From positions 1-43,082 of the forward strand of contig MHDO01000021.1 in assembly GCA_001805005.1 (NCBI GenBank): a stretch of 43,082 nucleotides of DNA. Reading direction: 5' to 3'. The DNA comes from Nitrospinae bacterium RIFCSPLOWO2_12_39_16. Lineage in GTDB: Bacteria > Nitrospinota > Nitrospinia > UBA9942. Positions 2,895 to 42,622 of the stretch are shown here, one piece after another. How positions within the stretch are numbered: the first letter of the stretch is position 1; each line of letters begins with the position of its first letter. Below the pieces are notes generated by a model. The model had not been told where the DNA came from, searched no databases, and saw only the letters and a program-made list of their open reading frames with translations. The translations under genes and the position numbers were made by a program.

Positions 2895-3004
2895 GGATAT
2901 TATAAAACCACAGAAAACACTGAAGGCACAGAAAAAACCGGTTAAAAATAAATATTTTAATTCAGTGTCTTCAGTGCTTCAGTGGTTTAAATCAGGTCTT
3001 TGTT
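2895..3004 (+). repeat. Gene-boundary hairpin element, copy 1 (CACTGAAG-type arms)
   Basis: 5' GGATATTATAAAACCAC. Left arm 2905-2933 and right arm 2961-2988 match 24/29 as reverse complements. 3' GTGGTTTAAATCAGGTCTTTGTT abuts the antiporter stop. Confidence 0.75.
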
Positions 3005-4145
3005 ATTCCGAATCTAAGATATCTTCCGAGTGAAGAGGCATAAACCATTTCTGTGCAACGAAGGTTGGAATCACCGCACTCGCAATAAGCACACCTGTCA
3101 AAACAGAATACTGCACCTGATTTATAAAACCTGAATTTAAGCCGAATACACTTGCGATTAACCCGAATGTTAAGCCTGTGCTCATTAAAAGTGTTGTATA
3201 AATATTTCCACTGGGAATATATCTCTTTGCAAGGAAGTAAACACCAATAAATTTCATCAATTGTTTTATTACAAAAAAGGCAATGAAAAGCCCGAAAGCT
3301 GACATAATCAATGGAAATGAGACCTTTAAGCCCCCGACAATGAAAAAGAGGGGGGTGATAATTGCAAAGGAAACAGTTCTTAACCTGTTCTTTACGACCT
3401 TCGTCCCGGATGTCTCAGTAAAATGTTTTGACATCATTAGTCCCAAAACGAATGCCGGCAGTATTGCATGCCCCTCTCCTAAATTTGCGAAATAGATGAA
3501 TATCAGTAACAGGAGAAAAATATATTTTATCTCAGGCTCAATTACCTTGTTTTTTAATTTCGGGTTATCAAAGACCTGATGGGAAAATCGGGTTGCCAGT
3601 ATTATTACAAATATGGAAATTATAATAAAGATGAATGTAAATAAGTTTGGTTTTATAAATATGACACTCAATGTAAGTGCAACCCACATATTTGTTATAA
3701 AGGTAGATGCCATGATCAATTTGCCAATCTCTGTTTTTGAAAGATTCGTTTCTATAAGAACTGAGTAAACTACGGCGATAGAGGTTTCTGATAGGGCGGT
3801 AGCGACAATCAAAGATGCAGGAAGGCTCCAGCCTATAACATAGTATGTGTAAAGGAATGCCCCGATAAAAGGAATTAAAAAGGAAAATGCACCAATAAGA
3901 AAGCTCTCTTTAAATTTATCCCTCATTAATCGTGTGTCAATCTCGGCACCTGCCAAAAAGGTTAAAATAATTCCGCCGAAGTTTGCCAGATATAGCATCC
4001 ACTCTTCAGTCTTAAGCCCCAGATTTCCAGAGACAGCCCCTAAAAGAATCTCTATTATTGCTACTGATATACCAATTCTTAATGAAATAAGGCTTGAGAA
4101 AAAGACTAATAAGCCAACAATTAGTGGGGTAAAATCCGCCTTCAA
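3003..4145 (-). CDS. Cation:proton antiporter (Na+/H+ exchanger family, CPA2-like)
   Basis: 380 aa, about 11-12 TM helices, FLAGAEID motif. TTG start at 4145 is supported by SD GGGAGG 6 nt upstream. Confidence 0.85.
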   Translation of the reverse strand: MKADFTPLIVGLLVFFSSLISLRIGISVAIIEILLGAVSGNLGLKTEEWMLYLANFGGIILTFLAGAEIDTRLMRDKFKESFLIGAFSFLIPFIGAFLYTYYVIGWSLPASLIVATALSETSIAVVYSVLIETNLSKTEIGKLIMASTFITNMWVALTLSVIFIKPNLFTFIFIIISIFVIILATRFSHQVFDNPKLKNKVIEPEIKYIFLLLLIFIYFANLGEGHAILPAFVLGLMMSKHFTETSGTKVVKNRLRTVSFAIITPLFFIVGGLKVSFPLIMSAFGLFIAFFVIKQLMKFIGVYFLAKRYIPSGNIYTTLLMSTGLTFGLIASVFGLNSGFINQVQYSVLTGVLIASAVIPTFVAQKWFMPLHSEDILDSE

Positions 4146-4238
4146 GATTAACCTCCCTTTTTTGAAATTTGTAGGAGTTATCAGCCATTAAGGCGGTTAA
4201 AGGTGAACTCCATCACCTCCTTTTAAGAAAGGGGCTTT

Positions 4239-5608: not shown

Positions 5609-5650
5609 TAATAAAAATCTGTGAAAATCTGTGGTTAAGTTATGTTTTTA
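5609..5650 (+). repeat. Gene-boundary element, right half only
   Basis: AAAATCTGTG x2 then GTGGTTAAGTTATGTTTTTATTC. Lies between the FGE-fold stop and the start of the next gene. Confidence 0.55.
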
Positions 5651-6466
5651 TTCTTTGTAGTCCATCACACATCTGAATCCGTAATCATTAGACTCCATAT
5701 CAGGGCTTTCACCGAGTCTTACAGCGCTTCGGGTGCTGACTGCCGGGCTTAACCATGAGCCCCCTTTAATAACCCTAAGCTCTTTTTCCTTGTCATACCA
5801 TGTATCTGTCCATTCCCAAACATTCCCTGCCATATCATGGACACCATAAGGACTCTTACCCTCTTTATATTTATCCACCTCTGTTGTGCCTCCAAATGTT
5901 ATAGAACCTGATGTCTCCTGTGCAAACTGTCCTACCCTGGCACTCCCGCCCAATCCAGATTCATATGAGTTGCACATTAATGTATCAAATTCATTGCCCC
6001 ACGGATATATCCTTCCATCTGTCCCCCTCGCAGCCTTTTCCCACTCTTCCTCGGTTGGGAGTCTCTTTCCTGCAGATTTGCAGTATTCATTTGACTTATC
6101 CCATTTTATGTTTACTACAGGGTGTCTTGCCCTGTCTGATGGAAAACTATGGTTTGGGTCAAATTTTTTATAGTCAGCATTTGTTACCTCATGGATGTCT
6201 ATATAGAATGGTGGAAGGTTAATTTTCTTCTTAGGTTCTTCATCAGAATACCACTTTGACTTACCGCCTAACTTTTTGACTGTATCTTCTATTTCTGAAG
6301 TATCACTCCCCATTATAAACTCACCGGCAGGTATCAGAACCATCCCTTCCTGGGTTAAGGGAGATTCTGCCGATATTGCAAATTGCAAATTGCAAATTGC
6401 AAAAGTCAAAGTTATACCTAAAAAATATTTTGCTTTAAGTATTTTTCTGTGTAAATCTGTGTTCAT
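5648..6466 (-). CDS. FGE-sulfatase (SUMF1/EgtB/PvdO) fold protein, secreted, lacking the FGE catalytic Cys pair
   Basis: MVLIPAGEFIMGS, YIDIHEVTNADYKKF, AGKRLPTEEEWEKAARGTDGRIYPWGN, GNVWEWT, RVIKGGSWLS, GFRCV. No Cys between GGSW and GFRC. The N-terminus is encoded by repeat DNA, so the start is uncertain. Confidence 0.85.
   Translation of the reverse strand: MNTDLHRKILKAKYFLGITLTFAICNLQFAISAESPLTQEGMVLIPAGEFIMGSDTSEIEDTVKKLGGKSKWYSDEEPKKKINLPPFYIDIHEVTNADYKKFDPNHSFPSDRARHPVVNIKWDKSNEYCKSAGKRLPTEEEWEKAARGTDGRIYPWGNEFDTLMCNSYESGLGGSARVGQFAQETSGSITFGGTTEVDKYKEGKSPYGVHDMAGNVWEWTDTWYDKEKELRVIKGGSWLSPAVSTRSAVRLGESPDMESNDYGFRCVMDYKE
6375..6402. repeat. Heptanucleotide array ATTGCAA x4
   Basis: Exact 4 x 7 nt. 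Encodes FAICNLQFAI in the FGE-fold protein N-terminus. Confidence 0.9.
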
Positions 6467-6497
6467 CTGTGGTTAATTAGGTTTTTGTTTTTCCTTT
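6444..6497 (+). repeat. Gene-boundary element, right half only; 3' terminus forms the CcmH-like C-terminus
   Basis: TTTCTGTG TAAATCTGTG TTCATCTGTG GTTAATTAGGTTTTTGTTTTTCCT. The last 21 nt are identical to 41498-41518. Confidence 0.7.
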
Positions 6498-6950
6498 TTC
6501 TAAAAAATCCAGCACCCCTGTTATTATTAGATATAATACACCTGACCATACGAAGACAAGGGCAATGAAAAGGGCTATATCACTTATCGGATAGCCCCCC
6601 CTTGTGATTTGATACCATTTTCCATGTATTCTCTGCAGTGGTGTAAGCATTGACTCTTTTCCAAACCGCTTAAAAAAGTATCCCTCAATCTCATCCTTGC
6701 CTGCACCTGCCATCAGCCTTTTTCCTATCATATCCTTCCATTCCATTCCGCAGCTCATATGACAGTCTTCAAGGACCATCGGGCATTCACACGGGCAGGC
6801 AATGTTATGGGATATGCCCATCACAGTATCCGCAGCAGCAGAAGGCCAGAAGACATATTTTATAACAGAGAAGATAATTATAATTGATAAAGATAGAAGG
6901 AATATTTTTATTTTCATCTTGAAATTAATGAAATTATAAAATTTAGCCAC
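6477..6950 (-). CDS. CcmH/NrfF-like membrane-anchored protein with atypical Cys cluster
   Basis: IACPCECPMVLEDCHMSCGMEWKDMIGKRLMAGAGKDEIEGYFFKRFGKESMLTP followed by a TM helix. The layout matches CcmH (Cys motif, then an i..mv..G.sd.eI..yfv.rYG..vl..P helix), but the usual LRCxxC is replaced. The start may be ATG 6917 (MKIKIFLL) rather than GTG 6950. Confidence 0.55.
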   Translation of the reverse strand: MAKFYNFINFKMKIKIFLLSLSIIIIFSVIKYVFWPSAAADTVMGISHNIACPCECPMVLEDCHMSCGMEWKDMIGKRLMAGAGKDEIEGYFFKRFGKESMLTPLQRIHGKWYQITRGGYPISDIALFIALVFVWSGVLYLIITGVLDFLEKGKTKT

Positions 6951-7094
6951 AGACTTTCACGGACTAAAATATTAAAAAAACAATAATTAGGAGAAAGGGG
7001 GCATTTTCTTTTTTTCCTAATTTCTCCATTTCTCCTTAATCTTTTTATTTGTTTTTGGTCTGTGCGAGTCTGTGGCTAATCAATCTTTGTTCTT
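6921..7094 (+). repeat. Gene-boundary hairpin element with G5/C5 core
   Basis: 5' GAAATTATAAAATTTAGCCACAGACTTTCACGGACT. Core AGGAGAAAGGGGG...TTCTCCTTAATCTTTT. Right arm GGTCTGTGCGAGTCTGTGGCTAATCAATCTTTGTTCTT. Confidence 0.8.
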
Positions 7095-13053: not shown

Positions 13054-13090
13054 AAATTTAATACCCAGTTTATGGGTATTTTTTATTTTT

Positions 13091-13211
13091 ATATAGGAAA
13101 TTATAAAATTAACCACAGGTAAACACAGATGAACACTGATAGAATAAAGAAAAAAAGTTTTTATCTGTGTTAATCTGTGTCCATCTGTGGTTTCATTAGG
13201 TCTTTGTTCTT
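13091..13211 (+). repeat. Gene-boundary hairpin element (CACAGAT decamer arms), reference copy
   Basis: ATATAGGAAATTATAAAAT-TAACCACAGGTAAACACAGATGAACACTGATAG ... TTATCTGTGTTAATCTGTGTCCATCTGTGGTTTCATTAGGTCTTTGTTCTT. The arms are about 26/32 complementary. Confidence 0.85.
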
Positions 13212-14158: not shown

Positions 14159-14220
14159 TAACTTGCAACTTACAATCTATAACTTAGTTGTCAGTTGTCA
14201 GTTAATAGTTATTATTAATA

Positions 14221-18040: not shown

Positions 18041-18068
18041 TATTTTAAATTTAATTTAAAAATGTATG

Positions 18069-18203
18069 AAACCACAGATGGACACAGATTTACACAGACA
18101 AAAAATCATATAAGGGGAAAGGGGGGGGAATTTTTCTCCCCTATTCTCCAAATCCCCCTTTTCTCCTTAATCTTTTAGTTTCTGTGTTTATCTGTGGCTA
18201 ATA
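18069..18203 (+). repeat. Gene-boundary hairpin element with G8/C5 core
   Basis: AAACCACAGATGGACACAGATTTACACAGAC ... TAAGGGGAAAGGGGGGGG ... TCCCCCTTTTCTCCTTAATCTTTTAGTTTCTGTGTTTATCTGTGGCTAAT. Shares TTCTCCTTAATCTTTT and TCTGTGGCTAAT with 6921-7094. Confidence 0.8.
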
Positions 18204-18252
18204 AATAATTGGGGTTGAAAGTTTCATCAAGGCGAGACTTTAAGGAGCTAAA

Positions 18253-19278: not shown

Positions 19279-19390
19279 CCAGAAGAACAAAGACTTAATG
19301 AAACCACAGATTACACAGATTTTCACAGATTTCTAAAAAAATATTTTGTTTTAATCTGCGGCAATCTGCGAATATATAATTTCCTATACA
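19279..19390 (-). repeat. Gene-boundary hairpin element, inverted orientation
   Basis: The reverse complement reads TGTATAGGAAATTATATA-TTCGCAGATTGCCGCAGATT...ATCTGTGAAAATCTGTGTAATCTGTGGTTTCATTAAGTCTTTGTTCTTCTGG. It is collinear with 13091-13211. Confidence 0.8.
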
Positions 19391-19398
19391 TTCAAATA

Positions 19399-19866
19399 TC
19401 ATTCTGGTTTTGTCATTGAAGGAAGTTGTGTGTCAGGAGAATAATTATCTTTACTTGGCCAGCCGGGGTTTTTTGCTGCAGATACAGTGTGAATTGCAGC
19501 CATCTCTATTTGACGGTACTTGGTCATTAGTTCCAGTCTCTTTGATTTAATATCATTTAAGTTAGCCCCTTCTATTTTTACTTGATAAAGATTGTACCCC
19601 TTGTCGTAACCTATTATCTTTCCATTAATATTCTTAATAATATCATCAATTGTAGATTGATCTGTGCCGCCTGTAAATGTAATCATTATTACATCCTTAA
19701 CAGCCAGAAGTCCTGTCTCCTCATCTTTAATAAGGTCTTGCGGGGATGGCAGTGCAAAACTTTTTACTTCTTTATTAGGGCTTGGTGAATGCGGCTTAAA
19801 AACATAAATAGAAAGGGCGATAATCACCACACCGATGATGCTTGAAATGATGGATATTTTTTTCAT
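19399..19866 (-). CDS. Membrane-anchored hypothetical protein (small alpha/beta domain, propeptide-like)
   Basis: Anchor MKKISIISSIIGVVIIALSIYVF. VIMITFTGGTDQSTIDDIIKNINGKIIGYDKGYNLYQVKIEG resembles a beta-alpha-beta-beta prodomain fold. Weak call. Confidence 0.5.
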   Translation of the reverse strand: MKKISIISSIIGVVIIALSIYVFKPHSPSPNKEVKSFALPSPQDLIKDEETGLLAVKDVIMITFTGGTDQSTIDDIIKNINGKIIGYDKGYNLYQVKIEGANLNDIKSKRLELMTKYRQIEMAAIHTVSAAKNPGWPSKDNYSPDTQLPSMTKPE

Positions 19867-19873
19867 ACATGGT

Positions 19874-19922
19874 GGTTAAGGCCAAGGATAAGATTTATAT
19901 TCTCTTACCCTCAACCTTAACC
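19874..19922. repeat. Heptamer-based inverted repeat
   Basis: GGTTAAGGCCAAGGATAAG versus the reverse complement of CTTACCCTCAACCTTAACC (15/19 match). Confidence 0.65.
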
Positions 19923-19931
19923 TCGGTATAT

Positions 19932-20564
19932 TTATTTATCCTTTGCACATCTAAAACCAATATATTCATGCATATCGTCGGGTATACTCATAAGGGTAGA
20001 GGTTGTCTTATTTAAATCCTCACCCTCAAAATAAGAACCTCCTCTTACGATTCTGTATTGTTTTTTACTCTCCCATGCATCTACCCACTCCCATACATTA
20101 CCCGACATGTCATAAACCCCATAAGGGCTCTTCCCTTTTTCAAATGACCCAACCTTTACAGGTCCGTTCCTTCCTGCCTCGCTTGTGTTTGCCTTTTTAC
20201 CATCTAATTTATCTCCCCACGGATATATCCTTCCATCTGTCCCCCTTGCAGCCTTCTCCCACTCCTCCGCCTTAGGAATCCTCTTCCCTGCACCTTTGCA
20301 GTATTCCTCAGCATCAAAGTAAGAAATCTCAACTACAGGAAAATCCTCTTTTCCTGCAGGAAAAGTATGCTCAGATTTAAATTTCTTGAGCTGGGCATTT
20401 GTTACCTCGTATTTATCAATATAAAAATCACCTACTTCTATCTTTTTCTTATCCTCTCCATATAAAAATTTGCCCCCCGGTATTAGAACCATATCATCAG
20501 CGGCATTTGAGATTGATACAATTGCAAATACTGCAACTGCTACTAAAAAAGAAAAAAACTTCAT
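19932..20564 (-). CDS. FGE-sulfatase fold protein, secreted, Cys-less paralogue 2
   Basis: MVLIPGGKFLYGE, YIDKYEVTNAQLKKF, AGKRIPKAEEWEKAARGTDGRIYPWGD, GNVWEWV, RIVRGGSYFE, GFRCA. Confidence 0.85.
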   Translation of the reverse strand: MKFFSFLVAVAVFAIVSISNAADDMVLIPGGKFLYGEDKKKIEVGDFYIDKYEVTNAQLKKFKSEHTFPAGKEDFPVVEISYFDAEEYCKGAGKRIPKAEEWEKAARGTDGRIYPWGDKLDGKKANTSEAGRNGPVKVGSFEKGKSPYGVYDMSGNVWEWVDAWESKKQYRIVRGGSYFEGEDLNKTTSTLMSIPDDMHEYIGFRCAKDK

Positions 20565-23116: not shown

Positions 23117-25108
23117 ATGAAAATCAATTTCCTTTCCAGAATCCAGAACAAGATATTCCTTTCCCTGATGTTAGCAGCAATCCTGCCCATCGGATACTTT
23201 GGTTACAATAGCATAAAATCCACAAGAAACTCCCTTATAGATGATACCTTAAGAAAGATGTATCTAAATGTGTTTGCTATGGGTAAGGATATGGATAATC
23301 ATTTAAAAAATGCGAAGGGTGATCTCCTTTATCTGAAATCTTCAGCACCACTGGAGTATCTTCTGGACGCTATGGAGTTTAATGACATTGCCTCTTTTAC
23401 CTACTGGAGGACCCTTCTTGAGAAAGAATTTTCCAACCTCATAGAGCAGAAGAATGTCTATTTACAGGCAGGTTTTTTGTCGCGGGATGGGGACGAGATT
23501 GTTCTTGTGGTATATGACATGAGCCGCCCTATTATACTCCCTTGGAAGAGTCTGCATAACCAGAGGGAGAGCGGGTATTTCAGGATGGCAGCCGAATTAT
23601 CCAATGGTGAGATTGCCTCTCTGCCTTTAAGGAGTTATGTGGTCAAGGGCTTAAATCTTTCAAATATTGCACTGATGCGTTATATTACACCTGTATATAA
23701 CAGGAATGGGAAATGGATGGGGATGATATATATTGATGTGATGGGGAAGCATATCTACAATACTGTGAAGATGTCTATAATGGACAGGGCATTCAAGGTT
23801 TTTCTTGTCAATAATAAAGGTTTTTATTTCTTCAATCCCGAATGGGAGGTTGAGGAGAATCTGCTGACTCCAAGTGATACACCTGAAAATATAGGTGAGG
23901 TGTATTCCAAGGAGGTTGTCTCTCAGATATTATCAGGGAAAGCAGGTGTGATTATGGATGATGATAAGAATATGTTTGCATATATGCCTGTTTTCCCAAG
24001 CGAGATGGACAAAAATTTTTACTATACGATTATTCAGATGTATCCTAAGAATCTCATCTCTGGAGGGGCAAAGGATTTTGAAAAGCTATTTTTAATTACC
24101 GTCCTTTCATCAATATTGCTGACTGTGCTCATGGGGATTATCATTTCAAAGATGCTTACAAATCCCCTCTCAAGACTCAAGAGGGGAGTTCAGTTGATTG
24201 GCAAAGGCAATTTAGACTATAGATTGGATATTAAAAGTGGAGATGAGGTTGAAGATGTAGCCGTTGAATTTAACAACATGGCAGAAAAACTTAAAAAATA
24301 CAGCCGCACTCTTGAGGAGAAGGTGGAGGAGAAGACAAAGAAGATGGAGGATTACGAAAAACAGTTGATTCACTCCGAGAAGATGGCATCACTCGGACTT
24401 CTGGCGGCGGGGGTTGCACATGAAATAAATAATCCGATAGGCATCATAGTCAACAGGATAGAGTGTTTAAAGATGGAAAATAAGAATGGTGATATTCCGG
24501 AAAAGATTGTTAAGGATCTGGACACAATGATGCACCATGCCATGAGGGTCTCAAAGATAACAGGAAACCTCCTTTCATTCTCACGGGAGTCATCGCATGA
24601 GTTTAAATCTCAGGATATAAATAAAATTTTGGAAAAGGTTTTGATGTTTGTGGAGGCTTCTATAACAGCGAAGGGCATAACTATGGAGAAATATCTTGCC
24701 ATGAGATTGCCCTTTGTATTTGGCAGCAGCGGGGGGCTGGAGCAGGTATTCTTAAATATTGTTCATAATGCAATGGATGCAACAAAAAGCGGTGGGAAAA
24801 TCAAGATTGAGACAAGATATAATGTTCAAAATTCAGAAGCAGATGGCTATTATCCAACAGGAAATGGACAAGGTAACGGAAAGTGTTTAAGTATTAACAT
24901 TTCAGATACAGGCGATGGGATACCCCATGAATACATAGGAAAAATATTTGACCCGTTCTTTACCACAAAAGAGATTGGAAAGGGGACAGGTCTTGGGCTG
25001 TCTATAAGCTACGGTATAATAAAGGAGCATGGAGGTGAGATAAGGGTAGATAGCGAGGTATCAAAGGGGACTACCTTTACAGTGTTATTACCTGTCATGG
25101 CAGAGTAG
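23117..25108 (+). CDS. Sensor histidine kinase (periplasmic Cache-like domain - TM - HAMP - HisKA - HATPase)
   Basis: TM1 IFLSLMLAAILPIGYF, about 300-aa extracytoplasmic domain, TM2, HAMP (PLSRLKRGVQLIGKGNLDYRL), H-box GVAHEINNP, N/G boxes (HNAMDAT, DTGDGI, GKGTGLGLS). Confidence 0.95.
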   Translation: MKINFLSRIQNKIFLSLMLAAILPIGYFGYNSIKSTRNSLIDDTLRKMYLNVFAMGKDMDNHLKNAKGDLLYLKSSAPLEYLLDAMEFNDIASFTYWRTLLEKEFSNLIEQKNVYLQAGFLSRDGDEIVLVVYDMSRPIILPWKSLHNQRESGYFRMAAELSNGEIASLPLRSYVVKGLNLSNIALMRYITPVYNRNGKWMGMIYIDVMGKHIYNTVKMSIMDRAFKVFLVNNKGFYFFNPEWEVEENLLTPSDTPENIGEVYSKEVVSQILSGKAGVIMDDDKNMFAYMPVFPSEMDKNFYYTIIQMYPKNLISGGAKDFEKLFLITVLSSILLTVLMGIIISKMLTNPLSRLKRGVQLIGKGNLDYRLDIKSGDEVEDVAVEFNNMAEKLKKYSRTLEEKVEEKTKKMEDYEKQLIHSEKMASLGLLAAGVAHEINNPIGIIVNRIECLKMENKNGDIPEKIVKDLDTMMHHAMRVSKITGNLLSFSRESSHEFKSQDINKILEKVLMFVEASITAKGITMEKYLAMRLPFVFGSSGGLEQVFLNIVHNAMDATKSGGKIKIETRYNVQNSEADGYYPTGNGQGNGKCLSINISDTGDGIPHEYIGKIFDPFFTTKEIGKGTGLGLSISYGIIKEHGGEIRVDSEVSKGTTFTVLLPVMAE

Positions 25109-25114
25109 ACTTTT

Positions 25115-25233
25115 TATAATTAAAATTTTAGCCACAGACTTTCACTGACTCATAAAAATCTCAAATCTCAAATTTAAAATTTCAAATCTTTTTAAGGTCT
25201 TTGTAAATCTGTGGCAAAAAGGATTTATTTTCC
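25115..25233 (+). repeat. Gene-boundary hairpin element between convergent kinase and REC genes
   Basis: TATAATTAAAATTTTAGCCACAGACTTTCACTGACT ... AAGGTCTTTGTAAATCTGTGGCAAAAAGGATTTATTTTCC. The left arm is nearly identical to that of 6944-6965. Confidence 0.75.
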
Positions 25234-25701
25234 TGAGTCATTTATAGCCCTCAAAAATTCGGCAATATTGAGTGGTTTAGATAACCACCTTGCACCTGTT
25301 TCTTGTATAAACTTTTCTGTTTCGGGTTCCATATTGCCTGTGATGAATATAACCCTACCTTTCATAGATGGGGTCTTATTGATAAGTTCCCTGTAAAACT
25401 CTATCCCATCCATTACAGGCATATTTATATCGCTTATTATCAGATCATATCGGGCACTCTCTATCATCTTTAAGCCCTCAAGACCATTTGTGGCTGTTTT
25501 GACTTCATAGTCATAGTCGGTCAGCATGTTTGCAATGAAACCAAGGATAGAAGTATCGTCATCAATTGCGAGTATGGTTCTTTTCATCTTTCTTTCCTCC
25601 TTATAAAAGACAAACCCGCAGTATGGACATGGAGATGGTTCATGAATGCTTGCTGTATATGAAGGCTTCTTACATTCCGGACATACCACTTCTTCTGCCA
25701 T
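25225..25701 (-). CDS. Single-domain response regulator (REC) with N-terminal C4 zinc ribbon
   Basis: CPECKK-x16-CPYCG, then REC (ILAIDDD...LIISDINMPVMDG...SKP). There is also an internal SD AAGGAGG + ATG (25587). Confidence 0.85.
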   Translation of the reverse strand: MAEEVVCPECKKPSYTASIHEPSPCPYCGFVFYKEERKMKRTILAIDDDTSILGFIANMLTDYDYEVKTATNGLEGLKMIESARYDLIISDINMPVMDGIEFYRELINKTPSMKGRVIFITGNMEPETEKFIQETGARWLSKPLNIAEFLRAINDSGK

Positions 25702-25725
25702 TTTATCCTCTTCTATCTATGTTTG

Positions 25726-26028
25726 TTATACGAAGACAGGCCTTTGTAGTCTGAATATCATTTTACCATTCTTACCACCATGCCCCTCTATAATCCCATC
25801 CATGATGGCAAGCCCATATCTTTCAAGAGAATTCATCATGGACTTTAGTTCAGCAGAATCAAGACTTTTTCCATTTGCCCTCTCTATCTGCTCAAGCTCT
25901 ATTCTTTCAGGCGCATCTGTGTCTGTAGAGTTTACAAGGAGCAGAATATATAATTTTAGCTCACTATTCTTTAGAAGGGAAAAATATTTTGAGGTGCTGA
26001 GTCCTCTTAGAAACCCTATTTTGTCCAT
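25726..26028 (-). CDS. Hypothetical small protein, possibly winged-helix
   Basis: MDKIGFLRGLSTSKYFSLLKNSELKLYILLLVNS...LEQIERANGKSLDSAELKSMMNSLERYGLA. Sits 24 nt upstream of the REC gene. The track N-terminus (MSWWLFNFLY) is repeat-encoded. Confidence 0.5.
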   Translation of the reverse strand: MDKIGFLRGLSTSKYFSLLKNSELKLYILLLVNSTDTDAPERIELEQIERANGKSLDSAELKSMMNSLERYGLAIMDGIIEGHGGKNGKMIFRLQRPVFV

Positions 26029-26126
26029 GTATAGAAAATTAAATAGCCACCAAGACACAAAGGCGCAAAGGAATAAAGAATAATTTTTTCTTTGAGTCTT
26101 CGAGTCTTTGAGGCAGGTATTTGTCC
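26024..26126 (+). repeat. Gene-boundary hairpin element, AAGACACAAAGG subfamily, copy 1
   Basis: TCCATGTATAGAAAATTAAATAGCCACCAAGACACAAAGGCGCAAAGGAATAAAGAATAATTTTTTCTTTGAGTCTTCGAGTCTTTGAGGCAGGTATTTGTCC. Confidence 0.8.
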
Positions 26127-26142
26127 ATATTTATTATTGGTT

Positions 26143-26171
26143 AAAATAGGACAAATATTCTATATTGTCAA
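26143..26171 (-). promoter_or_regulatory. Candidate sigma-70 promoter for the small-protein / Zn-ribbon-REC operon
   Basis: Minus strand reads TTGACA-N17-TATTTT. The spacer contains one arm of the 9-bp inverted repeat TATTTGTCC / GGACAAATA (26118-26126 / 26149-26157). Confidence 0.4.
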
Positions 26172-26207
26172 GCAAAAAAGGATAATATTATTTTGCCTAT
26201 CTTCTCA

Positions 26208-26236
26208 TTGACAATGAAATAGAAAAGGGATATTTT
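26208..26236 (+). promoter_or_regulatory. Candidate sigma-70 promoter for the XRE regulator gene
   Basis: TTGACA (26208-26213) - 17 nt - TATTTT (26231-26236). A mirror image of the divergent promoter 37 nt away. Confidence 0.4.
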
Positions 26237-26271
26237 GAATTGTGCTAAGAGCAGTTCCTGATGTAAAAGAA

Positions 26272-26709
26272 ATGATAAAAAAACAGATAGGAAAAAGGTT
26301 GCGGGATTTGAGGCAGAGGAAGGGGCTTACCCAGAAGGGCATGGCTAAAATGGCAGGAGTGGACTACACCTATATAGGGAAGATAGAACGGGGTGAACAA
26401 CTCCCCTCCTTAAATGTTCTTATTAGATTTGCCGAGTGTCTTTCTTTGCCACTTGACCGCTTCTTTATGGATGAAGCCACATGGAGATTGGTCAGCCTTG
26501 CACCAAAAGATGTTTATGAAAGTATGCAGAGAGAAAATCTCTGGGAGTTGTTAAGGTTATTGGAAGGAGTTCCAGAGGAGGATATCTCTCTCTTGACAGA
26601 AATATCGCGTGTCTTAAGAAGACACAGGGAAGTCAGTGTGACAAGAAAAGAAGGTCTGCCAATGGTGGCAGAATCACAGGCGGGATATAAAAAGAGGAAT
26701 AAAAAGTAA
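26272..26709 (+). CDS. XRE-family helix-turn-helix transcriptional regulator
   Basis: IGKRLRDLRQRKGLTQKGMAKMAGVDYTYIGKIERGEQLPSLNVLIRFAECL is a classic HTH_3 domain. ATG 26272 is preferred because the predicted promoter would place the TSS at about 26243. Confidence 0.85.
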   Translation: MIKKQIGKRLRDLRQRKGLTQKGMAKMAGVDYTYIGKIERGEQLPSLNVLIRFAECLSLPLDRFFMDEATWRLVSLAPKDVYESMQRENLWELLRLLEGVPEEDISLLTEISRVLRRHREVSVTRKEGLPMVAESQAGYKKRNKK

Positions 26710-26888
26710 GCGTAAAATACTAATTTCCATTTATCCGACAAATCTGCCACACTTCCCGAAGAGCGCTCACCATCAGTTAAATTTCGCTGGATGTGAAAGT
26801 TATTGACGCCACATTTTAAATTTCCTGCTTCCACCCTCACCATCTCTTGGGTTATACTATAAAATCATAATTCAATTTAGAAAAGGTG

Positions 26889-29633: not shown

Positions 29634-29694
29634 ACTTATAACTAACGACAAATAATAGTTGTAAGTTGTTAGTTGTCCGTTGTATGTTAATTTT

Positions 29695-31863: not shown

Positions 31864-32116
31864 ATGGCACATAAAAAGGGTCAGGGCAGCACATCTAATG
31901 GAAGAGACAGTATTGGAAAAAGGCTTGGCGTTAAGAGATACGGGGGTCAGATAGTTTCTGCCGGCAGCATTATTGTAAGACAGAGAGGAACAAAGTTTTA
32001 TCCCGGAGAGAATGTCGGGCTTGGTGTAGACTACACTATATTTGCAAAGATAGATGGTGTTGTGAAGTTTGAGAGAAAGGGCAGAGACAAGAAGCTGGTA
32101 AGTGTATATGCAGTAT

Positions 32117-32118
<2 letters not shown>
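31864..32118 (+). CDS. rpmA: 50S ribosomal protein L27
   Basis: [29 protein letters not shown]...[15 protein letters not shown] is a near-consensus L27. Confidence 0.95.
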
Positions 32119-33206
<1,088 letters not shown>

Positions 33207-33207
33207 G

Positions 33208-34335
33208 GTGAATAGAAAAAAAGTATTAAAAAAAGTCAGTAGGATTGTAATTAAGATTGGAAGCGGGGTTCTTACCACTCCTGACAGAAGTGGACTTGAT
33301 GATACTGTCATAGAAGAAATTACCCGGCAGGTTTCAACCCTCCATAAATCAGGACATGAAACGATTCTTGTTTCATCAGGTGCTATTGCTGCAGGGGTGA
33401 AGGAATTAAACCTTAAAAAAACTCCAGTGGATATACCTCACAAGCAGGCTGCAGCAGCAATCGGTCAAAGCCATCTGATTGGAAAATATGAAAGGTATTT
33501 CAAGAGGGAAGGGCTTAATGTAGCCCAGATTCTCCTTACCCATGATGATTTAAGCAATAGGATAAGATACCTTAATGCAAAAAACACAATTCTTACTATT
33601 CTCTCTTACAAGGTTATACCAATAATAAATGAAAATGATACTGTAGCTGTTGATGAGATAAAGTTTGGTGATAATGATACACTGTCTGCCATGGTGGCAA
33701 ACTTAATAGAGGCAGATTTGCTGATAATACTTTCAGATGTGAAGGGGTTATACAGTGCTGACCCTAAGTTAGACCCAACAGCAGAATTGATACCTGTTGT
33801 AGAGAAAATAACCAATGAGATTGAGGTAATGGCAGGCGACAGCAGATCTGCTACTGGTGTAGGCGGGATGGTGACAAAGATTCAGGCTGCAAAGAGGTTG
33901 TCTCATTCTGGAATACCAACTGTTATAGTTGATGGAAAGGTGAATGGTATAATAGAGGCTGTAATAAAAGGAGAAGAGGTTGGGACATTATTTCTGCCTG
34001 AGGAGGATAAACTTGGCAGTAAGAAATACTGGATTGCCTATACCCTTAAATCTAAGGGAAAGGTAAGGGTGGATAACGGTGCGAAGAATGTTCTTATTGC
34101 AGATGGTAAGAGCCTTTTGCCGTCAGGTATTTTAGAGATAGAAGGTAAGTTTAAGAGCGGTGATATGGTTAGCTGTATTGACAGCCGCAATAGGGAGTTT
34201 GCAAGGGGACTTGTAAATTATAGTTCAAATGAGCTAAAAAAAATTAAGGGTAAGCGCAGTTCAGAGATTGAAGAAATACTTGGATATAAGATGGTTGATG
34301 AGGCTATACACAGGGACAATCTCGTGATTCTATGA
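33208..34335 (+). CDS. proB: Glutamate 5-kinase with C-terminal PUA domain
   Basis: RIVIKIGSGVLT, VSSGAIAAG, FGDNDTLSA, and a PUA-like C-terminus (LPSGILEIEGKFKSGDMV). GTG 33208 starts 2 nt after the obg stop. The track ATG 33175 would overlap obg by 32 nt. Confidence 0.9.
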   Translation: MNRKKVLKKVSRIVIKIGSGVLTTPDRSGLDDTVIEEITRQVSTLHKSGHETILVSSGAIAAGVKELNLKKTPVDIPHKQAAAAIGQSHLIGKYERYFKREGLNVAQILLTHDDLSNRIRYLNAKNTILTILSYKVIPIINENDTVAVDEIKFGDNDTLSAMVANLIEADLLIILSDVKGLYSADPKLDPTAELIPVVEKITNEIEVMAGDSRSATGVGGMVTKIQAAKRLSHSGIPTVIVDGKVNGIIEAVIKGEEVGTLFLPEEDKLGSKKYWIAYTLKSKGKVRVDNGAKNVLIADGKSLLPSGILEIEGKFKSGDMVSCIDSRNREFARGLVNYSSNELKKIKGKRSSEIEEILGYKMVDEAIHRDNLVIL

Positions 34336-34348
34336 AAGTATAAAATCT

Positions 34349-34455
34349 CTGGAACACTAATTACACGAATATACGAATGGCACGAATAAAAACTAAAATT
34401 TTTTCTGTTATCAACTATTGGTGTAATTAGTCCATTCGTGTTATTCGTGTTCAGG
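34349..34455 (+). repeat. Inverted arrays of ACGAAT-type units between proB and proA
   Basis: GAACAC..CACGAATATACGAATGG (left) versus CCATTCGTGTTATTCGTGTTC (right). Also TAATTACAC / GTGTAATTA. Confidence 0.6.
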
Positions 34456-34475
34456 TTTTTGTTTATTTTAATTCT

Positions 34476-35727: not shown

Positions 35728-35806
35728 ACAGTGTCAGTGTCAGTGAACAGTGTCAGCAAGAATACTATCGATACTGATACTGACACTAATCACTAACACT
35801 GAATTT
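35728..35806 (+). repeat. Hexa/heptamer arrays (CAGTGT, GATACT) between proA and nadD
   Basis: CAGTGTCAGTGTCAGTGAACAGTGTCAG ... GATACTGATACTGACACTAATCACTAACACTGAATTT-ATG. Confidence 0.75.
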
Positions 35807-38679: not shown

Positions 38680-41307
38680 TCAATTGACTGATGGTATTTG
38701 TTTTTTTGGTATAGTAATAGTAAAAGTAGTCCCTCTGTTTATCTCACTCTGAACCTCTATTCTTCCCCCAAGCCTTTCTATTATGCCATAGCTGACAGAC
38801 AGACCGAGCCCTGTTCCTGTCCCAACATCTTTAGTTGTAAAGAACGGGTCAAATATCCTGCTCAAGTTCTCTTGCGGGATGCCTATTCCGGTATCCGATA
38901 TAGCCACAACAAGCTCATCTCTTTCTTCCATACTTTTTATTGTCAGGATGCCGCCGCTGTCAGTAATTGCCTGTATTGCATTGATAATTACATTAAGAAT
39001 GACCTGCTGTAAATGGTTATAATCCAGTATAAATTTTTTGCTGTTCGTATTTAAGTCAAGTTTTAATTCTAAATTTCTCTCCTTTATTTTATATTCAACC
39101 AGTTTCAGAGTTTCTGTAATTATCTCGTCAAGGTTGTGCGGGGAGAATTCAAATTGGTGCTCCTTTGCAAAATCAAGCAGATTTCTTATAACAGATTCTA
39201 TTCTATTTAGCCCCTTTTCCAAAAGGGGGATGTATTTCTTTCTGACATCCTCATCATTTCCATCAGTATTTAGCGTCCTTACACAATTTTGCATTCCCCC
39301 CAATGGATTATTTATTTCATGGGCTATTCCTGTTGCCAGCTGTCCTATTGCAGCGAGCTTCTCTGTCCTGTTCATCTGATGTTGTATCCTCTTCTGTTCT
39401 GTAATATCCCTTGCGATTCCAAGCAGGTCTGTTATATTGCCACTTTCATCTTTTAGGGGTGACGAGCTTATAACTACATTCCTTATTTCACCCTTCTTAT
39501 TTGAAATTTCAACCTCGTATATCTGTTTTATGCCGTCTTTTATTGACCTATTGAACCTTTTACCTTCATGTCTTGGTGCGAGGATACTGAATATTGACTG
39601 CCCTATAAGTTCATCCTTTTTATAGCCCCAGTCTTCAATCTTCTGATTCAGGTAAGTGAATGTTCCATCCCTGTTTACTATATATATGACATCATTGGCA
39701 TTCTCTAAAAGGTTCTGCAGGTAATCCTTTGTCTCTTTAATCTCCTTTGTCCTGTCTTCAATCATTTTCTCCAGATGCTCACTGTATTCCTTTAATTCTT
39801 TCTCCATCTTCTTTTTGACTGTAACATCCCTTACGACCATTACTGAGCCTATAGTTTTTTCTCCTGACTTTATAGATGTGGCAACTATCTCAGCTGTCTT
39901 TTCGCCTATTGTGGATGTTGTAAACCAAGGCATCTTATCAGGTTGTTTTATTAATTCTCCCACCCTCTCAGGTTTCCCGTGACAGGGGAATATACTCTTT
40001 CCAAGGATATGTTTTTTGTTTACATCAAGTATTTCCTCAGCAGTAGGATTTACAATTATGACCTTATTTTCCTCATCTGCCACAATAATCCCATCCCCTA
40101 CACTAAGCAGTATGCTTTCTAATGTATTCTTTTCCTCTGACAATTCGCTGTAAAGCCCTGTCAATCTTCCAGCCATCTTGTTAAATTCTATTGCCAGAGA
40201 GGAAATTTCATCACCGGTATCTATGCTCAGCCTGTGCTCAAAATTCCCCTTTCCTATGAGTTCTGCCCCCTCTTTAAGGAGGAGTATAGGCTTTCCGATT
40301 TTATTCGCCGCATATATGCCGAGTGTAGAAAGGATTGCCACCATAATAATGCCGCTTAATAAGACAAGGAGTAAGAGTCTGTTAATAGGAGAGTAGGTTT
40401 CATCAGGGTGCTGCCTCACGAAGATAAACCATTTCTTCTTGCCAAAACTCATGTCAAAATCGTATGTAAGTTTGACAGGTGCAAAACCGATTATAGAATC
40501 TATTCCGCCGTGTGCATCATCCGCCGCCACTGCCCACCCAGGCTCATTGCTGATTATCAAATTCATCAGGGACTTGTCAATTGAGTGGCTCCTTGGCGGG
40601 AATATGGGGCACATTATAATTGACCCTTCAGAATCCACTAAATTAGCATGTCCGGTTTCATCAATCTGGACATCTGATATTATCTTATAAAGAGTATCTA
40701 TCTTTAAAATTGCTTTAATAATGCCAGTCGTGTTTCCATCTTCTATTAGCGGGATAACCATAGTGATTAGAGGCTTTCCATCTTTATCATCAAAATAGAC
40801 ATCACTTAAATATACTTTATTACTTTTGCCGGAAAGTATATCTTTAACCACATCTTCATCATCTTGAAATATGGGTTTGTTCTGGTTTTTAGTATCGGAA
40901 GTAGCTACTAGAATTCCATTTTTATCGGTTACATAAATTACTATGTATTCTTCCTTATTATGGTTTTTAAACTGCCTTAGATGTTCAGATGCCTGATTGC
41001 CCATAATCCCCTCTTGCCCCCCTTTATCAAAGGGGGGTTGGGGGGATTTAACTGCATCTCTTATATCAGGAGAAAATGTAAGATTGTGAAGCTCATCTAT
41101 CTCCCTATGTAATATGATATTGACCTTATCAGCAGTCTCTTTTGCAATCTCTTTAAAGTTTGCACCTATGGAATTTCTTATAACCTTAGTGCTGCCGATT
41201 GATATTAGAAATATTCCGAGGACTAAGGGGAGAAGCCCCACTATAACCATTGTGGAGACAAGGTTTCGCCTGATACTCTTTTTTCTGAAATTTTCTAATA
41301 TGTTCAT
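38680..41307 (-). CDS. Sensor histidine kinase (Cache-like periplasmic domain - HAMP - 2 x PAS - HisKA - HATPase)
   Basis: TM1 VIVGLLPLVLGIFLISIG, about 290-aa external domain, TM2, HAMP (PILLLKEGAELIGKGNFEHRL), two PAS-like modules, H-box GIAHEINNPL, G boxes DTGIGI / GTGLGLS. Confidence 0.95.
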   Translation of the reverse strand: MNILENFRKKSIRRNLVSTMVIVGLLPLVLGIFLISIGSTKVIRNSIGANFKEIAKETADKVNIILHREIDELHNLTFSPDIRDAVKSPQPPFDKGGQEGIMGNQASEHLRQFKNHNKEEYIVIYVTDKNGILVATSDTKNQNKPIFQDDEDVVKDILSGKSNKVYLSDVYFDDKDGKPLITMVIPLIEDGNTTGIIKAILKIDTLYKIISDVQIDETGHANLVDSEGSIIMCPIFPPRSHSIDKSLMNLIISNEPGWAVAADDAHGGIDSIIGFAPVKLTYDFDMSFGKKKWFIFVRQHPDETYSPINRLLLLVLLSGIIMVAILSTLGIYAANKIGKPILLLKEGAELIGKGNFEHRLSIDTGDEISSLAIEFNKMAGRLTGLYSELSEEKNTLESILLSVGDGIIVADEENKVIIVNPTAEEILDVNKKHILGKSIFPCHGKPERVGELIKQPDKMPWFTTSTIGEKTAEIVATSIKSGEKTIGSVMVVRDVTVKKKMEKELKEYSEHLEKMIEDRTKEIKETKDYLQNLLENANDVIYIVNRDGTFTYLNQKIEDWGYKKDELIGQSIFSILAPRHEGKRFNRSIKDGIKQIYEVEISNKKGEIRNVVISSSPLKDESGNITDLLGIARDITEQKRIQHQMNRTEKLAAIGQLATGIAHEINNPLGGMQNCVRTLNTDGNDEDVRKKYIPLLEKGLNRIESVIRNLLDFAKEHQFEFSPHNLDEIITETLKLVEYKIKERNLELKLDLNTNSKKFILDYNHLQQVILNVIINAIQAITDSGGILTIKSMEERDELVVAISDTGIGIPQENLSRIFDPFFTTKDVGTGTGLGLSVSYGIIERLGGRIEVQSEINRGTTFTITIPKKQIPSVN
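41005..41048. repeat. G/C-tract nested palindromic element inside the kinase CDS
   Basis: AATCCCCTCTTGCCCCCCTTTATCAAAGGGGGGTTGGGGGGATT. Inner stem CCCCCCTTT/AAAGGGGGG. Encodes SPQPPFDKGGQEGI. Confidence 0.8.
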
Positions 41308-41399
41308 GAAATTATATAGCCGCTAAGACACAAAGGCACAAACTAATAAAGAATAATTTTTTCTTAGGGTCTTCGAGTCTTAGTGGCATGTTTTTGTTC
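41303..41399 (+). repeat. Gene-boundary hairpin element, AAGACACAAAGG subfamily, copy 2
   Basis: TTCATGAAATTATATAGCCGCTAAGACACAAAGGCACAAACTAATAAAGAATAATTTTTTCTTAGGGTCTTCGAGTCTTAGTGGCATGTTTTTGTTC. The CAT at 41305-41307 is the kinase start codon. Confidence 0.8.
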
Positions 41400-41520
41400 A
41401 TGTATAGGAAATTATAAAATCTTTAGCCACCAAGACACAAAGGCTCAAAGAAATAGGGAATAATTTTTACTTAGTGTCTTCGTGTCTTTGTGGCAAAAAT
41501 TAGGTTTTTGTTTTTCCTAT
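41397..41520 (+). repeat. Gene-boundary hairpin element, AAGACACAAAGG subfamily, copy 3 (head-to-tail with copy 2)
   Basis: TTCATGTATAGGAAATTATAAAATCTTTAGCCACCAAGACACAAAGGCTCAAAG...CTTAGTGTCTTCGTGTCTTTGTGGCAAAAATTAGGTTTTTGTTTTTCCT. The 3' terminus encodes the deacetylase C-terminus. Confidence 0.85.
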
Positions 41521-42546
41521 AAGGCTTTTTAAATGAAATACTACCGACTCCCCTAATGCCTCAAGGTTATATCCACCCTCAAGAACAGATACAATTCTCC
41601 CTTTACAGACCTTATCTGAAGCCTCACAAATAATATCTGTTAGTTTGCCGAATCCTTCGGATGTAATATTCATTGAACCAAGGGGGTCGTTTATATGTGC
41701 ATCAAAACCTGCAGAAATCATAATCAAATCCGGTTTATAATTGATTATCTTAGGATAAATCCTTTTTTTAAAGAGAGAAATATATTCCTTATCACCCTGC
41801 CCATGAGGCAGAGGTAAATTCATTGTAAAACCTTTTCCATCTCCATTTCCAGTCTCGTCAGACCTGCCAGTGCCTGGAAATAGGTATTCCTGATGAAGGC
41901 TTACATAAAAGACAGCAGGATCATTATAGAATGCGTTCTGTGTGCCGTTGCCATGATGAACATCCCAGTCTATGATAAAGACCCTTTTTACATTATACAT
42001 TTTTTGGGCATACTTTGCACCGATTGCAATATTATTAAAAAGGCAGAATCCCATTGCCCTGTCCCTTTCAGCATGGTGTCCGGGCGGCCTTACAGCACAA
42101 AAGACATTATTTACCCCGTTAGAAAGCCCCACCCCTTGTGGGGTGGGGACTAAAGCCCCGTCCTTTCTAACGGGGTTTATCTTTCCTTCAAATACAGCAT
42201 CTACTCCTGTTATAACCCCTCCTGCTGCGAGAAGGGCTGCATCATAAGAGTCTTCTGAAATAACAGTATCTGCATCCAATTCCCCCCTGCCCCCCTTTTC
42301 TAAAGGGGGGAGTGGGGGGATTAACTTTTCACAAGCCTCTTTAACATTGTGAATGTATTCCCTATCATGGATTAATGAAATCTGTTCAACTGTTGCAGGA
42401 ATCGGGGTGAGATTTATCAGTTTTTTTGTCAGATTCTCATTTTCTATCCACTTAATGATTGTTGTAAGACGGTTGGAATTTTCAGGATGATTGCCGGTAT
42501 TATGTTTCAGATATACAGGTGAATACACAAAACCTGTCTTTTTCAT
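41500..42546 (-). CDS. Histone deacetylase-family (AcuC/HDAH-like) zinc amidohydrolase carrying two in-frame palindromic insertions
   Basis: MKKTGFVYSPVYLKH, RPPGHHAERDRAMGFCLFNN, IDWDVHHGNGTQ, ISAGFDAH, LEGGY. ATG 42546 gives the conventional N-terminus. Confidence 0.9.
   Translation of the reverse strand: MKKTGFVYSPVYLKHNTGNHPENSNRLTTIIKWIENENLTKKLINLTPIPATVEQISLIHDREYIHNVKEACEKLIPPLPPLEKGGRGELDADTVISEDSYDAALLAAGGVITGVDAVFEGKINPVRKDGALVPTPQGVGLSNGVNNVFCAVRPPGHHAERDRAMGFCLFNNIAIGAKYAQKMYNVKRVFIIDWDVHHGNGTQNAFYNDPAVFYVSLHQEYLFPGTGRSDETGNGDGKGFTMNLPLPHGQGDKEYISLFKKRIYPKIINYKPDLIMISAGFDAHINDPLGSMNITSEGFGKLTDIICEASDKVCKGRIVSVLEGGYNLEALGESVVFHLKSLIGKTKT
42114..42175. repeat. 62-nt nested perfect palindrome inside the deacetylase CDS
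   Basis: Outer stem CCCCGTTAGAAAG / CTTTCTAACGGGG (13 bp). Inner stem CCCCACCCC / GGGGTGGGG (9 bp), loop TTGT. Confidence 0.85.
42278..42322. repeat. Second copy of the G/C-tract palindromic element, inside the deacetylase CDS
   Basis: AATTCCCCCCTGCCCCCCTTTTCTAAAGGGGGGAGTGGGGGGATT. Encodes IPPLPPLEKGGRGE in the same element frame as the kinase copy. Confidence 0.8.
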
Positions 42547-42622
42547 ATTTAAAGAGTAGCAAATGACATATAGAATCGTCAATTGTAGAACTGATTGAGG
42601 ATTAGTATAGCAGTAAATTAAA

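Follow-up and report, generated by a model that had tools for sequence, protein, structure and literature searches.

Results

Twelve hairpin elements in a Nitrospinota contig

The window, i.e. the entire stretch of DNA that was analysed, comprises 43,082 nucleotides of contig MHDO01000021.1 of Nitrospinae bacterium RIFCSPLOWO2_12_39_16, with a G+C content of about 39%. Its gene content is that of an ordinary chromosome, with two-component systems, sigma-54 activators, cytochromes c, an ABC transporter and the series rplU-rpmA-obg-proB-proA. The genes use Shine-Dalgarno sites, and 20 kb of the window recur at 99.2-100% identity in ten contigs from Rifle aquifer groundwater metagenomes. The window also contains twelve copies of a short element, about one per 3.5 kb, built on a common plan in which conserved 5' and 3' ends flank a long imperfect hairpin of repeat units of about 10 nt. 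An initial annotation, made from the sequence without database searches, had listed eleven of these copies. All eleven are present, and the plan it had described was upheld by alignment of the oriented copies, but a twelfth copy at 34329-34472 had been missed.

The copy at 13091-13211 may serve as an example. Its left end (plus strand, 13089-13109, TTATATAGGAAATTATAAAAT), of the type of the IS91-family origin end (oriIS), lies directly after the T-run of a terminator-like host hairpin (13060-13090). The long imperfect hairpin (plus strand, 13111-13192) has arms at 13111-13144 and 13159-13192 that are 82% complementary and contain three CACAGAT-type units each, about 10 nt apart. The right end (plus strand, 13191-13209, TTTCATTAGGTCTTTGTTC), of the type of the termination end (terIS), has a GTTC tetranucleotide at its end.

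The 5' end of the elements reads (A/T)TGTATAGGAAATTATAAAAT and the 3' end ...TTTGTTC. The reported conservation of these termini was borne out by comparison with shuffled sequences. The 5' end GTATAGGAAATTATAAAAT, with up to 3 mismatches, has 3 matches in the window compared with 0.05 expected, and the 3' end AGGTYTTTGTTC, with up to 2 mismatches, has 24 compared with 9.7 expected, a number that none of 100 shuffles reached. Copies 13091, 19279, 41303 and 6921 finish in ...TTTGTTC after the hairpin, and the remaining copies in GTTT, GTTA or a decayed end. When elements lie head to tail, the "two termini" form one contiguous junction, ...TTTGTTC^ATGTATAGGAAATTATAAAAT (with ^ marking the boundary; window 41399^41400, and also loci L021, L094 and L130).

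The ends resemble oriIS and terIS of the IS91 family

Canonical ends for comparison were taken from plasmid records of ISCR1 (L131), IS91 (L164) and a tandem IS1294-like element (L165), and their junctions were written on the strand complementary to the transposase gene. In the IS1294-like element, from E. coli, a GC hairpin is followed by GTG GTTC^ACGTATAGGAAATTGAAAAACC, and 17 of the 20 positions of its origin end are identical to ATGTATAGGAAATTATAAAA (compared with window 41400-41420 and 13089-13109). The IS91 junction reads CTTG^ATCGATAGGAATTTAAATCCCC (also written CTTG^ATCGATAGGAATTTAAAT), the origin end of ISCR1, whose 22-bp oriIS is given in PMC13023784, reads ^GGGTATAGGAAGTATAAACCAC, and the junction at window 41397 reads GTTC^ATGTATAGGAAATTATAAAATC. 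The core GTATAGGAA..TAAA is common to the window origin end, IS91 and ISCR1. Judging from these sequences, the 5' terminus is the origin end of the IS91/IS1294/ISCR family, and the 3' terminus is its termination end, in which a subterminal palindrome is followed by the GTTC cleavage tetranucleotide.

The published features of the IS91 family are compatible with what was seen in the elements. Its target and ter tetranucleotides are 5'-CTTG, 5'-GTTC and 5'-CTCG, the target has a T at position 2, the ter palindrome lies beside GTTC or CTCG, no target duplication is made, and the active intermediate of transposition is a circle of bottom-strand single-stranded DNA (PMC13181058).

Complete transposons with the same ends

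A search for the exact 18-mer TATAGGAAATTATAAAAT in one genome per species gave at least 120 matches. About half of the matches listed are due to chance in A+T-rich DNA. The others share a context, in which a stretch rich in T, in many cases the tail of a terminator hairpin, is followed by (T/A)TG and then by the 18-mer. Their hosts are Bacillaceae (Pontibacillus, Virgibacillus, Neobacillus, Siminovitchia, Priestia and others), Clostridium, Desulfobacterales and other deltaproteobacterial metagenome-assembled genomes (MAGs), a Thermodesulfovibrionia MAG and several Nitrospinota MAGs. Short derivatives with both ends and without a transposase occur in Bacillaceae, Clostridium, Desulfobacterota and Nitrospinota. 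Dispersed copies within single Bacillaceae genomes start at about TATAGG, finish in ...GCGCTTTTGTTC(TT) (TTTTGTTC(TT)) and have unrelated flanks, which identifies the termini of the initial annotation as the two ends of a mobile element. The interiors of these copies are long imperfect hairpins with optional modules.

A tblastn search with the ISCR1 transposase matched two Bacillaceae loci, in Siminovitchia fortis (L124) and Pontibacillus (L063). Both contain complete 1.6-kb elements with the element ends, encoding a protein of 410-414 aa that matches the NCBIfam IS91 family transposase NF033538 (291 bits, cutoff 125) and the Pfam families Y2_Tnp and Zn_Tnp_IS91 (PF04986, PF14319). In S. fortis, the end of a preceding mini element (...TTTGTTC) is followed by ^TTGTATAGGAAATTATAAAAT, 75 nt with TGTGGATAAC, the 410-aa gene, a small zinc-ribbon open reading frame, a GC hairpin and TTTTGTTC^. 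The left end of this element, GTTC^TTGTATAGGAAATTATAAAAT, contains the exact 18-mer. The Pontibacillus element has the same layout and a slightly variant left end, GTTC^TTGTCTAGGAAACTATAAAC; the right end of both consists of the GC hairpin and TTTTGTTC. Twenty further autonomous copies were found in metagenomes, 16 with both ends, 3 with the left end only and 1 with a very degenerate left and a doubtful right end. In the 16 with recognisable forms of both ends, the left end reads T[ACT]TAGGAAATTAT..., and a GC hairpin with TTTTGTTC, or with a close variant of it, makes up the right end. A deltaproteobacterial MAG (L021) also contains a transposase-bearing copy that has the exact 18-mer and a 94-nt mini element immediately upstream of it. 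An internally deleted copy of the element is present in Clostridium (L073), and ends of the element type occur in a more distant clade, from anaerobic digesters. Since the same two ends bound complete transposons in relatives of Bacillus, we regard the elements as a family of selfish DNA, and not as a new regulatory system.

We consider it very probable that the window elements are non-autonomous derivatives of rolling-circle insertion sequences (IS) of the IS91 family (HUH, Y2), similar to MITEs (transposable elements of the miniature inverted-repeat type) and consisting of an origin end, a long hairpin and a termination end. The MITE-like option of the initial annotation was thus essentially right, in that the elements are dispersed and non-autonomous. 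Its statement that the window contains no transposase also held: tblastn with two IS91-family transposases gave no match in the window at E <= 1. A metagenome scan and a protein search with the Bacillaceae transposase found relatives of Firmicutes type only and no Nitrospinota partner, a tblastn search of plasmids with the ISCR1 transposase was swamped by enterobacterial ISCR, and a scan of viral contigs gave only 6 matches, all due to chance, in giant-virus contigs of very high A+T content.

Long imperfect hairpins in intergenic DNA, without a transposase nearby, would also be expected of repetitive extragenic palindromic (REP) sequences or REPINs (REP doublets forming hairpins) spread by a REP-associated tyrosine transposase (RAYT) of the IS200/IS605-like Y1 class, and the hairpin foot GTGG/CCAC is reminiscent of the GT[AG]G of REP sequences. 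However, the element ends are asymmetric and match ori and ter of the IS91 family instead of REP, autonomous relatives with the same ends encode a Y2 transposase of the IS91 family and not a Y1 enzyme, and no recurrent protein lies beside the 18-mer across 120 loci among the matches listed. An origin of the elements from a REP/RAYT system is thus highly improbable. The same asymmetry of the ends speaks against the earlier proposal of REP elements or bacterial interspersed mosaic elements (BIMEs). The accompanying suggestion to look for a RAYT or IS200-type enzyme pointed in the right direction, towards an HUH-type transposase, but the likely partner is of the IS91-family Y2 rolling-circle kind.

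Hairpin cores vary between subfamilies

The nine full copies fold better than shuffled sequences (z = -3.1 to -9.5), and the two "right halves" at 5609 and 6444 show no folding beyond shuffles (z about 0). The units of the Nitrospinota elements define subfamilies, all variants of CACRRAK: CACAGAT, CACTGAA, CACGAAT, CACGGAT, CACAGAG and CACAAAG. The units are spaced by about one helical turn, and mismatches are concentrated in the 3-nt spacers between them.

The initial annotation had noted that the arm units differ between copies and stay complementary within each copy, and had taken this as a sign of selection for a hairpin rather than for a sequence. Between subfamilies the observation is correct, and a change of unit is mirrored in the opposite arm and in all units. 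Within a subfamily it is not: in the CACGAAT subfamily, with members in five genomes, the change was compensatory in 1 of 35 pairs, and the arms were otherwise simply conserved. For this reason, the apparent covariation is a contrast between lineages, which distinct master copies explain as well as structural selection does. Selection for the hairpin is plausible nevertheless, because a subterminal palindrome belongs to the ends of the IS91 family, but the evidence cited for it is the contrast between subfamilies and not covariation within a lineage. The population contigs (L001-L010) are too similar to be informative about covariation; at 99.2-100% identity, they differ inside the elements by only one 7-nt indel and one single-nucleotide polymorphism. 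The indel is an extra 7-nt unit (CTCAAAT) in contig L003, at window 25155 in the loop of element 25115-25233, and is the sole element indel in the ten contigs.

In 16 of 22 copies, folding is slightly better for the strand that runs from origin to termination end than for the complementary strand (p about 0.04, with copies that are not independent), which weakly supports the idea that the elements fold as single-stranded DNA.

Evidence for movement and a possible mechanism

A contig of a related Nitrospinota MAG (L112) is orthologous to window 24305-26870 at 88-92% identity. Its orthologous site has no element 25115-25233, and at the 26024 site it carries a different core, which is 97% identical to window copy 13092-13208. 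The absence at one site and the different core at the other indicate that the elements have moved.

Classical cut-and-paste MITEs of the DDE type would be mobile as well. Their heptamers would be subterminal transposase-binding sites in inverted arrays, and the heptamers of the elements, repeated directly in the left arm and inversely in the right and spaced one helical turn apart, do resemble such arrays. However, the outer ends TATAGGAAATTATAAAAT and TTTGTTC are unrelated and not inverted repeats of each other, they are constant while the heptamers vary between subfamilies, and they belong to a rolling-circle element. A target duplication was not evident in alignments of multiple Bacillaceae copies or at the one empty site, in L112, where divergence blurs the borders. 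We regard a DDE origin as very doubtful.

Insertions lie after terminator T-runs, as exemplified by the hairpin at 13060-13090 just before copy 13091. The termini of copy 18069-18203 had been described as deviant, and its ends are indeed decayed; the copy is also inverted, which had not been stated. The orientation count is therefore ten plus-strand to two minus-strand copies, irrespective of gene strand. Co-orientation of copies was also seen within loci L062, L085 and L094.

By analogy with the IS91 family, we infer that the elements are mobilised in trans. A transposase supplied from elsewhere would nick the plus strand on the immediate 5' side of the origin end, where a T-rich or GTTC-type tetranucleotide precedes. 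The predicted cleavage sites are GTTC^(A/T)TGTATAGG at the origin end and, at the termination end, the position after ...TTTGTTC. The nicked strand would be displaced as far as the hairpin and the GTTC of the termination end, its ends would be joined to give a single-stranded circle, and the circle would insert after a similar T-rich or GTTC tetranucleotide in single-stranded target DNA, without target duplication. The hairpin is plausibly the subterminal (ter) palindrome and would bring both cleavage sites together in single-stranded DNA. A preference for terminator T-runs and for the GTTC of other copies would account for the position at gene boundaries and for the head-to-tail pairs, the one-strand chemistry of the enzyme would account for the mostly shared orientation whatever the gene direction, and if only the pairing of the hairpin is constrained, the cores would be free to differ between subfamilies.

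The copies and the genes that they touch

The copy at 2895-3005 (plus strand), with a degenerate left end (GGATATTATAAAAC), a hairpin of CACTGAAG units and the right end AGGTCTTTGTTA, overlaps the stop codon of a minus-strand Na+/H+ exchanger gene. Two plus-strand copies are truncated. The one at 5609-5653 consists of the right arm (ATCTGTG units) and a decayed right end, without an origin end, and the one at 6444-6490 of the right arm and the right end. The arm of the latter (CACAGAT units, 6444-6466) is translated as the N-terminus MNTDLHRK of gene 5648-6466, and its right end (6477-6490) contains the stop codon of gene 6477-6950. At 6925-7092 (plus strand), a copy with the left end TTAATGAAATTATAAAAT and the right end ...AATCTTTGTTC has outer arms of CACAGAC units and a nested G/C-rich inner hairpin. 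Such an inner hairpin is also nested in the inverted copy at 18066-18210 (minus strand), which has decayed ends and arms of CACAGAT units.

Convergent genes flank both the inverted, canonical copy at 19285-19392 (minus strand; left end with 2 mismatches, right end AAGTCTTTGTTC) and the copy with degenerate ends at 25115-25233 (plus strand). The copy at 26026-26126 (plus strand) has AAGACACAAAGG-type units. The twelfth copy (plus strand, 34330-34464 within 34329-34472), with CACGAAT units, lies between proB and proA and has close relatives in four other Nitrospinota MAGs. The last two copies, both on the plus strand, form a head-to-tail pair. The first (41302-41399) has the left end GTTC^ATG..AAATTATATAG and the right end ...ATGTTTTTGTTC, and the ATG after the boundary (41305-41307) is the minus-strand start codon of the histidine-kinase gene 38680-41307. 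In the second (41400-41513), a perfect 19-nt origin end adjoins the GTTC of the first, and the right end (41500-41513) contains the stop codon of gene 41500-42582. Three minus-strand genes stop inside element right ends (6477-6490, 41500-41513 and 7076-7092), two of them after ...GKTKT and one after ...RTKID.

These overlaps, from which several genes now draw their start or stop codons, would suit gene-boundary modules selected by the host, either RNA (terminators, processing or stability hairpins) or promoters, whose mobility, if any, would be long past or incidental. The hairpins have great stability, the elements have changed little in the population (the one indel and the one polymorphism in ten contigs mentioned above), and the TATAAT of an origin end forms part of one promoter-like site (6960-6933, minus strand). 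However, orientation does not follow the direction of transcription and six copies are antisense to the flanking genes, no element hairpin meets even a lax terminator pattern, and a scan of the window with Rfam 15 at gathering score had a fluoride riboswitch at 4165-4226 as its sole match, so that the elements match no Rfam family. In addition, their presence varies between related genomes, and elsewhere the same ends bound a transposase gene. Host-selected modules are thus improbable. The intercistronic RNA modules considered in the initial annotation find no support, given the disregard for transcription direction. Its small transcription units, with TATAAAAT as a -10 box, fare no better, with a promoter-like site at a single copy and no hairpin called as a terminator. 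Exaptation of single copies is likely and compatible with the mobile-element account.

Several other assignments were considered and dropped. As intrinsic terminators, no element hairpin was called by a simple scan, and the terminator-like hairpin at 13060-13090 lies upstream of copy 13091. As a sigma-70 promoter, TTGTAT..TATAAAAT has a spacing of only 9 nt, and by inspection there is no -35 on the reverse strand. A site of Xer/dif or FRT type shows partial similarity (a TGTATA spacer; GTATAGGAA as in FRT) but has neither a dyad nor an associated recombinase, and this reading was superseded by the IS91 match. A replication origin at about 10 kb, as the cause of a flip in GC skew, was rejected because the gene there encodes a sigma-54 activator and is not dnaA. 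A Bacteroidetes-type promoter or terminator was discarded, given the Shine-Dalgarno sites in the genes and the Nitrospinota origin of the related genome records.

Additional observations

The fluoride riboswitch (Rfam RF01734, 63 bits, minus strand) lies upstream of the minus-strand Na+/H+ exchanger-family gene 3003-4145. Hairpins of tandem 7-nt units without recognisable ori and ter ends were seen in intergenic DNA at 32105-32200, 35728-35806, 19862-19934, 14159-14220 and 29634-29679; these hairpins may have arisen by decay of complete copies or may represent another kind of repeat. For the hairpin after rpmA, folding is far better on the transcribed strand (-48.9 vs -24.1 kcal/mol).

A GC-rich palindrome of about 45 nt (CCCCCCnnCCCCCCTTT..AAAGGGGGGnnGGGGGG) is present in frame within two genes (window 41004-41050 and 42278-42322). 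It encodes ..SPQPPFDKGGQEG.. in the histidine kinase and ..IPPLPPLEKGGRGE.. in a deacetylase-like gene, and recalls palindromic elements that insert in coding regions. The G/C-rich inner hairpins in the loops of elements 6921 and 18069, and another at L094 1144-1236, are related to it.

Outside the window, the Rfam motif Bacillaceae-1 (RF01690) has matches at L030 3269-3332, L099 2148-2214, L063 3075-3141, L066 7157-7221 and L025 7504-7569. They sit 100-260 nt inside Bacillaceae mini elements, with the same orientation, as an optional internal module; instead of a small RNA (sRNA) gene in its own right, the motif may be cargo of a transposon. In anaerobic digester contigs (L159-L161), a 35-nt unit (ATGTTAAGGAAATTATGGTGGTTTCATATTTCTTG), single or in up to four tandem copies, lies upstream of the transposase gene of a more distant IS91-family element; the unit looks like a minimal origin-plus-terminus element. 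In Clostridium ganghwense and C. gallinarum (L013, L093 and L096), the 14-mer GGAAATTATAAAAT occurs in a perfect or near-perfect inverted pair (GGAAATTATAAAAT..ATTTTATAATTTCC) that is not paired with a TTTGTTC end.

Discussion

IS91-family and ISCR elements owe their prominence chiefly to the resistance and virulence genes that they mobilise in proteobacteria, and the recognition of their ends is poorly understood. The window elements share with IS91, IS801, IS1294 and ISCR an origin end of the form GTATAGGAA(A)TT..AAA on the transferred strand, a termination end in which a palindrome is followed by GTTC, and a T-rich or GTTC-type target tetranucleotide. They also share the lack of inverted terminal repeats and the occurrence of head-to-tail tandems at GTTC^ (PMC13181058), and no target duplication was visible in the Bacillaceae alignments or at the single empty site with its blurred borders. 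Unlike members of the family, they carry no transposase, their interior is only a 70-140-nt hairpin made of repeat units, and their targets are mostly terminator T-runs (TTTA/TTTG).

The closest precedent among short derivatives is mini-IS801 of Pseudomonas syringae, with derivatives of 229-679 nt that were mobilised in vivo (PMC3189936). Like the window elements, these are short pieces without a transposase that keep the origin end and have a ter-like tetranucleotide at the end, and they were mobilised in trans. They are, however, sporadic one-ended products of one IS in one species, in contrast to the structured family described here, with an origin end, a designed hairpin and a termination end, many subfamilies, several phyla and the density noted above.

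REP and REPIN sequences with their RAYTs, and palindromic elements derived from IS200/IS605, are likewise abundant intergenic hairpins thought to be moved as single-stranded DNA by an HUH enzyme in trans. They differ in the enzyme class (Y1) and in the end signals, and REPINs, as symmetric doublets, have no counterpart of the asymmetric ori and ter ends of the window elements. Non-autonomous Helitrons are another parallel, with rolling-circle movement, asymmetric ends, no target duplication, an HUH enzyme acting in trans and a 3' subterminal hairpin of which the structure is kept rather than the sequence. Their gene order (5' end, gene, 3' hairpin) resembles that of the autonomous Bacillaceae copies. 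Helitrons are eukaryotic, however, use a Rep-helicase fusion enzyme and have the end motifs 5' TC and 3' CTRR, so that the resemblance is one of working and not of membership.

Several observations weigh against a derivation from the IS91 family. The Nitrospinota right ends have no short GC hairpin directly before GTTC, which canonical and Bacillaceae elements have, and the spacer between hairpin foot and GTTC is about 15 nt in the window, 4 nt in the IS1294-like element and 3-4 nt in the Bacillaceae copies. Except in tandem pairs, the origin end is mostly preceded by the tetranucleotide TTTA or TTTG, and not by GTTC or CTTG. In the Bacillaceae clade, the transposase gene is on the strand of the 5'-TATAGG end and is read from origin to terminus, the reverse of IS91, IS1294 and ISCR1. 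Several copies have decayed ends and are incapable of moving now, and movement is documented by one empty site only, with borders blurred by divergence. Nothing known about IS91 explains why the heptamer units are spaced by a helical turn. Finally, tblastn found no IS91-family transposase in the window or in nine Nitrospinota loci (about 58 kb); MAGs often lose IS copies.

Instead of simple IS91-type debris, the elements may be a distinct class of "designed" rolling-circle mini-transposons, so far undescribed, which has spread to several phyla. We put this forward tentatively, as a possibility that is less likely than not to be correct. In such elements, the actual work may be done by the single long hairpin, which would fold the excised strand and bring the cleavage sites of origin and termination end together. 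On this view, the CACRRAK heptamers, spaced by a helical turn, could set specificity, either for transposases that co-evolve with them or for a single-strand-binding factor of the host, partial domestication would be reflected in the high density in Nitrospinota and in the start and stop codons supplied to genes, and the Bacillaceae-1 sRNA of Rfam would be a cargo module of the element family.

The IS91 family and one-ended mini products such as mini-IS801 (PMC3189936) are already known. The motif string was found in no paper in a literature search. Within a literature coverage that was incomplete and lacked ISfinder and TnPedia, we found no published description of a structured mini element family of origin, hairpin and terminus, of its spread over Firmicutes, Desulfobacterota and Nitrospinota, or of an IS91-family clade with inverted gene.

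The 19-nt origin end is almost unchanged between E. coli plasmids, Bacillaceae, Desulfobacterota and Nitrospinota, and natural minimal units of origin, hairpin and termination end exist at sizes of about 35-150 nt. Together, they provide ready-made minimal substrates with which recognition, initiation and termination by Y2 transposases can be studied. One curated RNA motif at least (Bacillaceae-1) may belong to a transposon, and for annotation it matters that element ends supply several gene starts and stops in the window. The dense intergenic hairpin repeats of uncultured groundwater bacteria, which can be mistaken for regulatory RNAs, thereby gain an explanation.

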